Of a DNA stretch of 4,501 nt, positions 788-4,501 are shown piece after piece. Source of the DNA: a virus (Duplodnaviria; Heunggongvirae; Uroviricota; Caudoviricetes). The translations under genes were made by a program, and so were the position numbers. Every line of letters begins with the position of its first letter. Position 1 is the first letter of the stretch. Below the pieces are notes generated by a model, which had not been told where the DNA came from, did not search any database, and worked only from the letters and a program-made list of their open reading frames with translations. The stretch lies in the IMG/VR virus record IMGVR_UViG_2706794676_000009; one strand, given 5' to 3'.

Positions 788-1037
788 NNNNNNNNNNNNN
801 NNNNNNNNNNNNNNNNNNNNNNNNNNNNNNNNNNNNNNNNNNNNNNNNNNNNNNNNNNNNNNNNNNNNNNNNNNNNNNNNNNNNNNNNNNNNNNNNNNNN
901 NNNNNNNNNNNNNNNNNNNNNNNNNNNNNNNNNNNNNNNNNNNNNNNNNNNNNNNNNNNNNNNNNNNNNNNNNNNNNNNNNNNNNNNNNNNNNNNNNNNN
1001 NNNNNNNNNNNNNNNNNNNNNNNNNNNNNNNNNNNNN
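788..1037. other. unresolved or masked sequence (250 N)
   Basis: Uninterrupted run of n. It covers the 3' end of the hok-like gene and the junction to the next gene. Confidence 0.97.
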
Positions 1038-1141
1038 CGGATTCGTACCTCACAGAGGTCTTTCCTCGTTACCAGTGCCGTCACTATGACGGTTAAACAG
1101 ATGACGATCAGGGCGATTAACATCGCCTTTTGCTGCTTCAT
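1038..1141 (-). CDS. hokD: Hok/Gef-family type I membrane toxin, 5' portion only (3' end lost in N run)
   Basis: ATG at 1139-1141 preceded by AAGGAG 9 nt upstream. The 34 visible residues MKQQKAMLIALIVICLTVIVTALVTRKDLCEVRI, plus an unambiguous Arg from CGN at the gap edge, match my recollection of E. coli HokD (RelF) residue for residue and show the hydrophobic helix followed by the RKDLCE motif typical of Hok proteins. The symbol rests on recalled sequence, not a search. Confidence 0.75.
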
Positions 1142-1214
1142 AGCCTGCTTCTCCTTGCCTTTCGGCATGTAAGAGGCTAACCTACATGTGCAAAGCATGA
1201 AATTGGCCTCAGAT

Positions 1215-1249
1215 TAATGTTAAGCGTCTTGCCGGACGCGTAATGTTAA
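1215..1249. repeat. imperfect palindrome TTAAGCGTC-n6-GACGCGTAA (1220-1243) bracketed by direct repeats TAATGTTAA (1215-1223 and 1241-1249)
   Basis: Read directly from the sequence. Located in the hok 5' leader, about 75-110 nt upstream of the hok ATG. Confidence 0.5.
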
Positions 1250-1262
1250 CTGGGGCTTTTCT

Positions 1263-1299
1263 CTATCTGCCTTTTGGTGTTCATGCCTGAAGCAGATAG
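1263..1299. repeat. inverted repeat CTATCTGC-n21-GCAGATAG
   Basis: Perfect 8-bp arms at 1263-1270 and 1292-1299, read directly from the sequence. Lies between the candidate promoter and the hok ATG. Could be an RNA stem in the leader or a dimeric protein-binding site. Confidence 0.5.
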
Positions 1300-1317
1300 C
1301 CTCAAGCACCCGCAGTC

Positions 1318-1347
1318 ATTCTACTTACCTCGCCAATATGAAATCAA
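1318..1347 (-). promoter_or_regulatory. candidate sigma70 promoter for an independent hok transcript
   Basis: On the minus strand: -35 TTGATT (1342-1347), 18-nt spacer, -10 TAGAAT (1318-1323). It lies just downstream of the QueH-like stop and would give a leader of about 170 nt before the hok ATG. Pattern match only. Confidence 0.3.
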
Positions 1348-1368
1348 TCAGAAAGGTGCCCCATAAAA

Positions 1369-2055
1369 TCACTCCTTCTCTTCTTTACCGTAGTGGAGTT
1401 GACCAATTTTGATAAGAGGGCGTCCCTGAGATTTGCGGTGTAGATTGGTATCGCGCAGAGAATACACACAGCCACAATATTCCTGCTGATAGAATTTTTC
1501 GCGCTTGCTGATTTCAATCATACGGGACGAGCCGCCCTGCTTGCGCCAGTTATAATCCCAGTACACCATGCCCGGATAATGCGCGACGGCTCGCCGCCCA
1601 CAGTCGTTAACCTGCTGCATATTTTTCCAGCGTGAAATGCCCAGTGAACTGCTGATCACACTGAAACCATTTTCAGCGGCGTACAGCGCTGTCCGCTCAA
1701 AACGCATGTCAAAACACATGGTGCAACGGATCCCTCGTTCGGGCTCCCATTCCATTCCTTTGGCTCGTTCAAACCAGTTGTCTGTGTCGTAATCAGCATC
1801 AATAAACGGCACGCCGTGTTGTTCAGCAAAGCGAATATTCTCATCCTTACGAATTAAATACTCTTTCTGAGGATGAATGTTCGGGTTGTAGAAAAAGATG
1901 GTGTAGTCGATTCCCGAGGCCTGAAGCGCCTCCATCACCTCACCGGAACATGGAGCACAGCAAGAGTGCAGTAGTAGTTTGTTTGCCCCGTTTGGGAGCT
2001 CCAATTTGGGCCGTTTGAAATCAGCAACTGTCATAAATATGTTTATTGGGGTCAT
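1369..2055 (-). CDS. DUF208/QueH-like protein (candidate cobalamin-independent epoxyqueuosine reductase)
   Basis: 228-aa ORF, ATG at 2053-2055, stop TGA at 1369-1371. Motifs [11 protein letters not shown] near the N-terminus, [18 protein letters not shown] in the middle and [12 protein letters not shown] near the C-terminus fit what I recall of the QueH family (clustered Cys ligands for an Fe-S centre). No Shine-Dalgarno before either the first ATG or the second at codon 8. Confidence 0.5.
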
Positions 2056-2202
2056 AAAAATATCAAAGAGTGTAGCATTAGAACGGGGCTATCGGAAACA
2101 GATGTGTGACTGCTCCCCGCCCTTTCGGGTGGTCTCCTGATGATTTGAGGGTGCAGAAATCCCTCCGGTTAAGGATTAAATTTTTAACAGTGCTAAATTT
2201 AA

Positions 2203-2616
2203 TTATTCAGTTCTGGATTTTGTCGCCCTGCGTATCCGCGCTTTCGCGTTACGCTCAATCTGTATCAGCTTTTCTATATTTCTCCGCCTTTCCTGTTCCT
2301 CCTGGCGCAATAGCCTTACATCATCTGCCAGTCTGGTTTCTCTTTTTGCCACAGAGAGCATCCAGTCAAACGGCTCCACAACCGCACCGCAGATTTTACA
2401 GCGGACCTGACGCTCTTTTTCGTCAACCCGTACAGAGGCGTGATGGCAATATGGTCTTTCCGATGGCTCATAAAGAAAATTAACCTGATTACGAGGGTCA
2501 TCCTCTTTTACCGGAAATAAAACGATATTGCTTAACTCATCTTCTGGTTTTATTTCCATGCTCCTCTCCTTTGATGCGAATGCCAGCGGTAATTGAAGCC
2601 TGATAGCTAATTTCAT
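2203..2616 (-). CDS. hypothetical protein with putative zinc-ribbon (CHH...C-x2-C) and charged C-terminal helix
   Basis: ATG at 2614-2616 directly abuts the TGA stop (2617-2619) of the upstream gene, suggesting translational coupling. An alternative start at ATG 2557-2559 has a strong AAGGAG 6 nt upstream and would give 118 aa. Contains YCHHASVRVDEKERQVRCKICG and an Arg/Glu-rich C-terminus (RLLRQEEQERRRNIEKLIQIERNAKARIRR). Stop TAA at 2203-2205. Confidence 0.55.
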   Translation of the reverse strand: MKLAIRLQLPLAFASKERSMEIKPEDELSNIVLFPVKEDDPRNQVNFLYEPSERPYCHHASVRVDEKERQVRCKICGAVVEPFDWMLSVAKRETRLADDVRLLRQEEQERRRNIEKLIQIERNAKARIRRATKSRTE

Positions 2617-3039
2617 TCACAGTATCGCCTCCTGAAAATTACCCTGATAGAAAGCCAGTACACGCTGCATAGCTTCGCTCTTCCGGCACTCGCGACAGAT
2701 TATATTCAGGCGCCTGTCGTAGCGGCGTATTTCTCCGTCAGGTAATGACCAGATAAGGTCCGGATCAACAACAACCGGTTTCCTCACCTTTACTCTCGAG
2801 AGTTTTTTGCGGGCGCTTTGCCAGTCCTTGCGAGCCTGTTCAGACGGGAATAAGCCGTAGCCAGAATTATATACATCACCACTTGCGACCAGTTCTATGC
2901 ATAAGCGACCGACAGACGCACGACTGATACCTGTTTCATCTGACAACTGCCGAATCGTGACCCGACCGTCCTGATGCACGAGTTCCACAATTCGCGTCTT
3001 CAGTTCTTCCCGCTGTTCGGGAGTAAAAGGTTTCGCCAT
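2617..3039 (-). CDS. winged-helix/HTH DNA-binding protein (phage-associated, function unknown)
   Basis: ATG at 3037-3039 with a perfect AGGAGG 4 nt upstream, 14 nt after the DnaC-like stop. 140 aa; the N-terminal segment RVTIRQLSDETGISRASVGRLCIELVASGDV looks like a helix-turn-helix, followed by a basic stretch ARKKLSRVKVRKP. It might correspond to the Rac YdaW/DUF977 type, but that is an unverified guess. Confidence 0.65.
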   Translation of the reverse strand: MAKPFTPEQREELKTRIVELVHQDGRVTIRQLSDETGISRASVGRLCIELVASGDVYNSGYGLFPSEQARKDWQSARKKLSRVKVRKPVVVDPDLIWSLPDGEIRRYDRRLNIICRECRKSEAMQRVLAFYQGNFQEAIL

Positions 3040-3053
3040 AAATCCTCCTGAAA

Positions 3054-3723
3054 CTACTTAACAACCCTCGAATGGCTAACATTCGGACGCCAGCTCTCCC
3101 AGTTAAAATTCACCCAGCGNNNNNNNNNNNNNNNNNNNNNNNNNNNNNNNNNNNNNNNNNNNNNNNNNNNNNNNNNNNNNNNNNNNNNNNNNNNNNNNNN
3201 NNNNNNNNNNNNNNNNNNNNNNNNNNNNNNNNNNNNNNNNNNNNNNNNNNNNNNNNNNNNNNNNNNNNNNNNNNNNNNNNNNNNNNNNNNNNNNNNNNNN
3301 NNNNNNNNNNNNNNNNNNNNNNNNNNNNNNNNNNNNNNNNNNNNNNNNNNNNNNNNNNNNGATAGCTGCCGCTAAGTGATTCTTCCCGGTACCAGGTTTT
3401 CCGCTGAACGCAAAATTTGTACACCCGGTCATCAGTTCATCGGCGATGGATTTCGCCTGGCTTAACGCGTATCGCTGGCCGTCGTTCTGCACCTGGTAAT
3501 TCGCAAACGAGCATTTACGGTGCAACGGCTGGATGCCTGAGCGATTCAGAATTTTTTCCACCCGCAACTGGCGATTCAGGCGGTTGATCTCCTCGCTACG
3601 TTTCTGGCCTTCAGCAAGTTGCCACTCGCGCCACTCCGCTACCGTTCTGAATGGGGCGGTTACATGTGGCGGGGTCAGTCGGCGGATGCGTTCCAGAACG
3701 CCGCCTGTCGCAATATTTTTCAT
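3054..3723 (-). CDS. DnaC-like replicative helicase loader (AAA+ ATPase), interrupted by N run
   Basis: ATG at 3721-3723 with GGGGG 9 nt upstream, 6 nt after the initiator stop. N-terminal 121 aa end in the Walker A motif FSGKPGTGKNHLAAAI and follow E. coli DnaC closely (NRSGIQPLHRKCSFANYQV vs DnaC NRSGIRPLHQNCSFENYRV). After the gap, the frame ending TAG at 3054-3056 encodes WVNFNWESWRPNVSHSRVVK, which matches the DnaC C-terminus (WVIFNWDSYRSRV). The track's stop at 3103 is a frame artefact of the gap. The span is 670 nt, not a multiple of 3, so the gap length is not exact or there is an indel. Confidence 0.8.
3120..3360. other. unresolved or masked sequence (241 N)
   Basis: Uninterrupted run of n inside the DnaC-like gene, immediately after the Walker A motif. 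Confidence 0.97.
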
Positions 3724-4077
3724 GGTCCGTTACCCCCTGAAGCCTGGCGGGATCGCACTGTCCGGCAACGAGACGGTGTTAACCTGTCGGAGCAACGTCT
3801 CAGGCCGAACACCTTTCGGCGCGAACAGGCCCTGGTATTCATTGGCGATGCTGTGTCGAATCACCTGCTCAGGTGTAAAACCCTGCTGACGGAATTTTTC
3901 CAGTTCCCGTATCGCCCCGTTAGCGCCCTGCTCCGTTCGAATCGGTTTTCGCAATGCCTGTCTGAACCGGACCCACTCATGCCAGAGTGTTTCCGGCAAC
4001 CAATCGGGCAGCTCAATAGCCTCCGGCTCGAATTTTTTAGACGCTCGTTTTTGGCGAGGGGGAGATCAGTATTTAGA

Positions 4078-4098
4078 TCTTCCTCTTCCTCTTCCTCT
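4078..4098. repeat. tandem hexanucleotide repeat TCT(TCCTCT)x3
   Basis: Read directly from the plus strand. On the minus strand it encodes the acidic run EEEEED in the initiator linker. Confidence 0.85.
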
Positions 4099-4190: not shown

Positions 4191-4501
4191 CCGTTTTTTT
4201 TAGAGCTTTTTCCGTTATGACGTTCAAAGTTAGGTAGAGAAAGCCCTCCGTCATTTTCGACCAGCCATCCAACCTGAATTAACGCATCAGCAAAACCAGA
4301 CATAAAAGTGATGCGATCTATTGCACTTTTTGTAACGCCGCGAGCGTTACAATCTGCATTACCGTCTATCATTTGTTGATCCGCCCATGCCCAGAAGCGA
4401 ATAACCTGAGGTAGCCTGAGTTTAACGGACACTCCTTCCTGAAATAGAATGGCATCAGAAGGAGCTAATAATGAGCAGAAAAACCCAACGTTACTCTAAA
4501 G

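Follow-up and report, generated by a model that had tools for sequence, protein, structure and literature searches.

A probable hok/mok/sok type I toxin-antitoxin cassette of the hokW/hokD type in the early-right region of a lambda-like prophage

The window analysed here is the whole stretch of 4,501 nucleotides (nt) taken from the IMG/VR virus record IMGVR_UViG_2706794676_000009 (Caudoviricetes), and it represents the early-right region of a lambda-like prophage in which the listed genes are all located on the minus strand. Two runs of N mask the positions 788–1037 and 3120–3360. Between a queH and a rem-like gene, and running into the first of these masks, lies the start of a hok toxin gene. 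A first-pass annotation, made from the sequence alone, had described it as a HokD-like toxin start that lacks relBE and follows its own promoter and a structured leader. We report that the segment 1038–1347 together with the masked 3′ end very probably constitutes a complete hok/mok/sok type I toxin-antitoxin cassette of the prophage hokW/hokD type. This identification is based on the membership of the leader in a conserved RNA family, on the positions of the individual elements, on the near-identity to a validated locus and on predicted folds. The cassette as such is already known: it is a standard copy, nearly identical to a characterised one.

For the positions 1038–3119 and for reading the first mask, and for these only, the corresponding region of E. 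coli FDAARGOS_943 (locus L001) was used. Its sequence is 100% identical to the window over 1038–1420, shows four differences in the stretch between the masks and is shorter by 6 nt in the first mask; because of this difference in length L001 is regarded as a close relative of the window. Variation was assessed in 103 related loci (from the set L006–L125) and in 74 unique related leaders.

Toxin, leader and antisense RNA

From its ATG at 1141–1139 the hok open reading frame (ORF) reads MKQQKAMLIALIVICLTVIVTALVTRKDLCEVRI and then enters the mask at 1037. All 34 visible residues are identical to residues 1–34 of K-12 HokD, with a single nucleotide difference in 104, which confirms the HokD-identical start recorded in the first-pass annotation. 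In L001 the full Hok protein comprises 51 amino acids, ends with VFVDYESRK and matches the Hok/Gef family PF01848 with 81.1 bits at a cut-off of 22. The visible residues and the L001 protein together thus describe a small hydrophobic toxin of about 50 amino acids of the Hok/Gef type, the last 17 codons of which are masked in the window. Projection of the L001 features onto the window places the stop codon at ~986, the 3′ element fbi at ~917–929 and a terminator hairpin at ~870–910, positions that carry an uncertainty of ~6 nt owing to the 6 nt by which L001 is shorter across the mask. The L001 3′ untranslated region (UTR) contains CCTCAACGCACCC after the hok stop, followed by a hairpin with a T-run, and fbi is found 202–212 nt after the hok ATG in 96 of 102 related loci.

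Codon 47 of hok in L001 (~5962–5968, corresponding roughly to 999–1005 within the window mask) is UAC followed by G, within the heptamer CUACGAA that resembles a tRNA-Arg anticodon loop. A-to-I editing by TadA is reported to change a tyrosine codon of hokB into one for cysteine, with a comparable site in hokC, hokD and hokE (preprint 10.1101/2025.08.07.668861). The CUACGAA motif is kept in L001 hok, while the corresponding stretch of the window is masked.

Upstream of hok, a scan of 1038–1420 returned TTGATT-18-TAGAAT as the sole sigma-70-like site (one found, 0.4 expected in shuffles), and the sigma70 promoter previously proposed for 1318–1347 is therewith recovered at the same place. Of 103 related loci, 92 retain its −10 hexamer TAGAAT. 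The Rfam family RF01794 matches the minus strand from 1311 to 1136 over the full model (1–157) with 117 bits, against a gathering score of 59, and an E value of 3.9e-27. Hence, a conserved structured hok leader is present on the hok-sense strand, in line with the structured leader that had been noticed from the letters. The 5′ end of the match (1311) is located 7 nt downstream of the −10 element; therefore, the promoter and the conserved RNA 5′ end agree. The earlier description of about 170 bp of non-coding DNA holds in part: 170 nt is the length of the predicted transcribed leader (1142–1311), and the intergenic gap measures 227 bp (1142–1368).

RF01794 also matches the hok-sense strand at the leaders of K-12 hokC, K-12 hokB and 933W hokW. 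These matches are on the strand opposite to the annotated sokC, sokB and sokW genes, and the model therefore describes the hok-sense leader. The family itself carries the name 'sok antitoxin', yet its last three positions align to the hok AUG, so that a hit marks the leader and is on the wrong strand for Sok.

Within the leader, the previously noted 8-bp inverted repeat with a 21-nt loop, formed by CTATCTGC (1263–1270) and GCAGATAG (1292–1299), corresponds to the apical hairpin of the tac stem. Likewise, the palindrome GCGTC...GACGC (1224–1239) and its flanking direct repeats TAATGTTAA (1215–1223 and 1241–1249), also seen before, belong to the hairpin that Sok and its target share. The roles of the ucb box were assigned after PMC9841398. 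Both tac and the −35 element of the Sok promoter show no variation (0.0 bit) among the 74 unique leaders. At the tip of the Sok/target hairpin (window 1224–1240) there is a ~16-nt G+C-rich insertion (GCGUCUUGCCGGACGC) relative to the Rfam consensus, sokC and sokB, which is common to 933W sokW.

The ATG at 1196–1198, which had been put forward as the possible start of a mok-like frame, is the mok start. It is preceded by its own Shine-Dalgarno (SD) sequence and lies upstream of hok, which the frame overlaps. The resulting N-terminal extension is similar to the annotated MokW (MLNTCRLASYVPKGKEKQA...) and MokC, each of which is likewise read in the frame of its own hok. The mok SD reads GAGG in 102 of 103 related loci and GATG in the remaining one. 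We considered whether an in-frame mok is atypical and rejected this, as mokC and mokW share the frame of their hok and mokB does not. The in-frame start is missing from 13 of the 103 related loci owing to a deletion of 2 nt immediately behind the mok ATG; there, mok would have to use a different frame, as in hokB, or would be lost.

On the plus strand, a Sok promoter and a Sok RNA are recognized by homology, the ends of the RNA being mapped from the sokW annotation of the phages 933W and Sp5. The Sok promoter differs from that of Sp5 sokW by one spacer nucleotide. The RNA differs by seven substitutions, all of them in the 5′ tail, and the hairpin and the GGGGCUUUU end are identical. Among the related loci, the −35 hexamer TTGCCT is found in 82/103 and the −10 hexamer TAACCT in 83/103. 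The predicted fold (−28.6 kcal/mol, z −4.9, none of 200 shuffles as good; computed from 1191 and repeated from 1190) has a single-stranded 5′ tail of ~15 nt followed by the long hairpin 1205–1257. The RNA spans the mok SD and start codon on the opposite strand. By this position and by its near-identity to the annotated and validated sokW it is classified as a cis-encoded Sok. We conclude from sequence comparison that the window contains a Sok antisense gene. The first-pass annotation had seen no convincing Sok promoter and terminator and had regarded the control of the toxin as open. Both statements have to be revised given the match to sokW at 1155–1183 and 1190–1260: with a Sok gene present, toxin control has the standard answer.

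The 5′ tail of Sok (1190–1204, plus strand), which coincides with mok codons 2–5, is hypervariable, with a mean column entropy of 0.91 bit in the unique leaders as compared to 0.12 bit for hok third codon positions and 0.33 bit for the Sok hairpin. It occurs in at least eight discrete alleles, including the window, 933W and AACGGCAAAT types, and the allele of the window is found in 4 of 103 loci.

Table 1 Coordinates of the cassette elements and of further features
Feature	Coordinates	Strand	Remarks
hok promoter	1318..1347	minus	−35 TTGATT 1347-1342, 18-nt spacer, −10 TAGAAT 1323-1318; promoter scan
hok mRNA 5′ leader, 170 nt	1142..1311	minus	from predicted 5′ end 1311 to the base before the hok ATG
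tac (GGGUGCUUGAGG)	1300..1311	minus	mRNA 5′ end; invariant in 74 unique related leaders
tac-stem apical hairpin	1263..1299	minus	first helix of Rfam consensus; forms in nascent and truncated RNA folds
ucb, anti-SD box within AAAGCCCC	1252..1258	minus	nearly invariant in 74 unique related leaders
Sok-target hairpin	~1257-1205	minus	contains palindrome and TAATGTTAA repeats
mok Shine-Dalgarno GAGG	1207..1210	minus	8 nt upstream of mok ATG
mok reading frame, visible part	1038..1198	minus	ATG 1198-1196, in frame with hok; N-terminal extension MLCTCRLASYMPKGKEKQA
dcb (GCCUC)	1173..1177	minus	third helix of Rfam structure; predicted mok SD partner in processed mRNA
hok toxin ORF, visible 34 codons	1038..1141	minus	SD AGGAG 1155-1151, ATG 1141-1139; remainder under N mask
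Expected hok codons 35-51, 3′ UTR with fbi, terminator	788..1037 (masked)	minus	inferred from L001 only
Sok promoter	1155..1183	plus	−35 TTGCCT 1155-1160, 17-nt spacer, −10 TAACCT 1178-1183; same position as upstream of annotated sokW, sokC, sokB
Sok antisense RNA, 71 nt by homology	1190..1260	plus	tail 1190-1204, hairpin 1205-1257, 3′ end UUU
RF01794 matches elsewhere	L004 502-654; L005 567-718; L002 1599-1773		
DnaC/IstB-like ATPase (ydaV type)		minus	early-right region
DUF977 protein	2617-3039	minus	
Small zinc-ribbon-like protein	2203-2559	minus	
QueH	1369-2055	minus	PF02677, 220 bits; next minus-strand gene upstream of hok
Rem-like protein	443-733	minus	68% protein identity to K-12 Rem
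DUF1367 protein	51-404	minus	

Predicted folding of the hok mRNA and proposed control

Closed, open and metastable conformations have been described for the R1 hok mRNA (PMC9841398). Folding of the leader, one of the checks suggested in the first-pass annotation, gave predicted counterparts of all three when the 3′ end was supplied from L001. A full-length hok mRNA of 446 nt was modelled on L001, and all folds are minimum-energy predictions. In the full-length fold, tac (nt 1–12) pairs with the fbi-like sequence CCUCAACGCACCC (nt 383–395) and the mok SD pairs with ucb; this pairing of the ends was seen in the L001 model, the fbi side of the window itself being masked. Truncated models ending at nt 345–355 adopt the tac/ucb and SDmok/dcb pairings, with the mok SD at nt 102–105 pairing with nt 136–139. 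Other 3′ truncations yielded a 5′ metastable hairpin in which tac is paired with the sequence just downstream. The predicted folds therefore match the known closed and open conformations.

Based on these folds and on the mechanism known for the family, the following sequence of events can be proposed. The minus-strand promoter (1347–1318) would give rise to a stable hok mRNA starting near 1311. In the full-length RNA, the tac/fbi pairing together with the sequestration of the mok ribosome-binding site by ucb would prevent translation of both mok and hok. Slow trimming from the 3′ end would take off fbi and lead to refolding into the tac/ucb and SDmok/dcb form, in which the hok mRNA would become translatable and, at the same time, accessible for Sok. 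A short, unstable Sok RNA of 71 nt, transcribed from the plus-strand promoter at 1155–1183, would pair at 1190–1260 over the mok SD and start and thereby block mok translation and, with it, the coupled translation of hok; the duplex of Sok and mRNA would be cut by RNase III. Once Sok synthesis stops, be it by loss of the element, transcription shut-off or prophage induction, Hok would be made and the inner membrane depolarised. For this particular copy, the transcription start sites, the 3′ processing, the cleavage by RNase III and the toxicity are expected from the family, and the same applies to its presumed biological role in prophage maintenance and/or in supporting lysis after induction.

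We tentatively suggest, as a possibility rather than the expected case, that the 5′ tail of Sok acts as a specificity determinant that has diversified into alleles, with co-resident cassettes each being controlled by their own Sok only. If true, the tail alleles would keep co-resident prophage cassettes from cross-regulating.

Relation to relBE-hokD and alternative readings

The identity of the visible residues with HokD raises the question of a relBEF-type operon as in K-12, with relBE hidden by the mask or just outside the window. The chance of this is negligible. The absence of relB and relE noted in the first-pass annotation stands: a full leader with its promoter, 227 bp in all, and then queH precede hok, and no relBE is found in the window or, in L001, within 6 kb on either side. 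The possibility that relBE is hidden in the mask was rejected on size and position, as the mask is situated downstream of the hok start and comprises 250 nt, compared to ~530 bp for relBE. Moreover, when L001, 933W and the K-12 relE-hokD region were aligned and the 40 nt upstream of the ATG were compared directly, K-12 matched only from 14 nt upstream of the hok ATG (window 1155), and the Rfam search of the K-12 relBE-hokD locus returned no hok leader. The alignment that had been suggested as a check thus places the window with the characterised hok/mok/sok loci and lets the homology to K-12 end at 1155.

Shared between K-12 hokD and the window are the ORF, the 3′ UTR with fbi, the terminator, the region upstream of rem and the rem-like gene (68% protein identity). 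In contrast, K-12 has the 3′ end of relE in place of the hok promoter, tac, ucb, the Sok target, the mok start and the Sok promoter. Given the end of the homology, relE upstream of it and the lack of a leader, K-12 hokD is the same cassette after replacement of the 5′ control region by relBE. As judged from these alignments, the K-12 relBE-hokD arrangement is a derived, 5′-truncated form and not the reference state. Pedersen and Gerdes are said to have described hokD in 1999 as being without the hok regulatory elements, and the alignment and Rfam results agree with that. A search of the open-access literature gave no usable statement that K-12 hokD is without regulatory elements.

The view that an arrangement without relBE is unusual did not hold in the genome survey. 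The 170-nt leader (at least 80% coverage) is present in 4,259 of 5,426 complete E. coli genomes, compared to 1,173 with the K-12 relE-hokD junction. In total it occupies 8,631 places (per genome, median 2 and maximum 8), with no annotated feature beneath. An identical hok SD and start occur in 104 IMG/VR contigs, of which 102 carry the leader and 2 carry relE; the protein equals K-12 HokD over all 51 residues in 62 of the 102 leader-bearing contigs. A recent survey reported that hok is enriched in prophages (bioRxiv 10.1101/2025.08.07.668861). Genome annotation names the toxin alone ('hokD'), leaving the mok frame, the Sok RNA and the leader unannotated, and intact loci therefore look like orphan toxins.

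Several observations weigh against an intact and functional cassette in the window. The 3′ third of hok, fbi and the terminator are all masked, and their sequence is known solely through L001, which is shorter there by 6 nt. In the minimum-energy folds the open conformation is limited to some 3′ truncation points. Simple scans of 1038–1420 found neither the Sok promoter nor a Sok terminator, and TAACCT agrees with the consensus at 3 of 6 positions. Sok escapes such scans owing to a −10 element with a poor consensus match and to a long hairpin interrupted by internal loops; since such a hairpin is outside the scan rules, the missing terminator was not taken as absence. According to earlier work cited in bioRxiv 10.1101/2025.08.07.668861, the tested chromosomal E. 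coli hok/sok loci, with hokA, hokB and hokC named, gave no post-segregational killing, and for this reason activity of the present copy is not guaranteed.

These killing data also speak for a silent relic, as reported for several chromosomal hok loci of K-12, in which the full architecture is retained but the toxin does not reach harmful levels or a lesion within the masked 3′ part has inactivated the copy. The 3′ end of the window is masked, and the terminator region of L001 is not of the same length as its counterparts in K-12 and 933W. Nevertheless, we consider a relic improbable, as the visible part contains neither an insertion element nor a frameshift and ORF, fbi and terminator are intact in L001. 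Furthermore, conservation of all regulatory boxes in ~100 prophage copies suggests purifying selection, and the 94.6%-identical Sp5 locus is active (PMC8621323).

A different control is conceivable if hok was expressed mainly via read-through of the prophage early-right (pR-type) operon, similar to hokD from the relBE promoter in K-12. Long transcripts made upon induction would then lack a free 5′ tac, converging transcription would disturb Sok, and Hok would be timed to lytic growth. The orientation of hok on the same strand as the surrounding replication genes, queH and the nin-like genes is compatible with this, and the scan found no terminator-like site between queH and hok. In addition, mitomycin C lowered sokW RNA and raised HokW in Sp5 in a RecA-dependent manner (PMC8621323). 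However, hok is preceded by a conserved promoter of its own, placed precisely at the conserved 5′ end, and the 933W/Sp5 cassette is located in a different part of the phage genome. Read-through as the main route is therefore judged rather unlikely, and where it occurred it would supplement canonical control and not replace it. We thus favour the complete hok/mok/sok cassette transcribed from its own promoter.

Genomic neighbourhood and comparison with known systems

Directly upstream of the cassette, the early-right region of the prophage codes for a full-length epoxyqueuosine reductase (QueH). This enzyme modifies tRNA and represents phage cargo. In L001, an IS1A copy (3128–3825) and a cluster of four tRNAs (Ile, Arg, Thr, Gly; 2656–2966) are located between the nin-like and lysis genes of the same prophage, ~2–3 kb downstream of hok. 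Base-by-base comparison of the whole window with L001 failed to the left of the first mask and to the right of the second, where the offsets shift; right of the second mask, the loss of the base-for-base line-up may reflect either an offset shift as at the first mask or real divergence. The window further contains a short TCC/TCT-rich run at 4078–4098 on the plus strand (TCTTCCTCTTCCTCTTCCTCT) and a plus-strand ORF (MSRKTQRYSK...) starting at its very end (4471–4501).

The closest characterised relative is hokW-mokW-sokW of 933W and Sp5/VT2-Sakai, with 94.6% identity over 1038–1331. The mokW, hokW and sokW genes are annotated in 933W, and the Sp5/VT2-Sakai locus is identical to that of 933W. 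The hok −10 element, tac, the hairpins, the in-frame mok, the Sok promoter hexamers, the Sok hairpin and the U-tail are all shared with the window. Differences are the seven substitutions in the Sok 5′ tail, which translate into MLCTC at the mok start of the window and MLNTC in 933W/Sp5, the Hok C-terminus (VDYESRK in L001 compared to VDYESEK in 933W), and the 3′ UTR past fbi, which is divergent between L001 and 933W. Also the position in the phage differs: the cassette in the window is located between queH and rem in the early-right region, whereas in 933W it is found next to L0136/L0139. In Sp5, HokW was shown to be toxic and to be neutralised by sokW expressed from its own promoter, partly via RNase III and Hfq; mutation of the sokW promoter abolished the antitoxin activity and unmasked toxicity (PMC8621323). 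The pair was shown experimentally to be a toxin-antitoxin system of type I which aids lysis after induction (PMC8621323). With such a copy experimentally characterised, and with the family being among the best-studied antisense-RNA systems, the discovery value of the present locus is small.

The K-12 loci hokC (gef)/mokC/sokC and hokB/mokB/sokB have the same leader fold (118 and 110 bits with the Rfam model), and sokC and sokB possess equivalent promoter boxes and an equivalent Sok start position. The mokC frame agrees with that of hokC, as in the window; mokB and hokB are in different frames. Unlike in the window, the toxin sequences are different and the Sok hairpin is shorter, since the ~16-nt tip insertion is restricted in this comparison to the window and 933W. 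The founding member of the family is hok/sok (parB) of R1, for which the tac/fbi and ucb/dcb pairings, the coupling via mok and the mechanism involving Sok and RNase III were worked out (PMC9841398). It is plasmid-borne and was likened to the window by its published description; toxins of the HokW type share ~44% identity with R1 Hok (PMC8621323).

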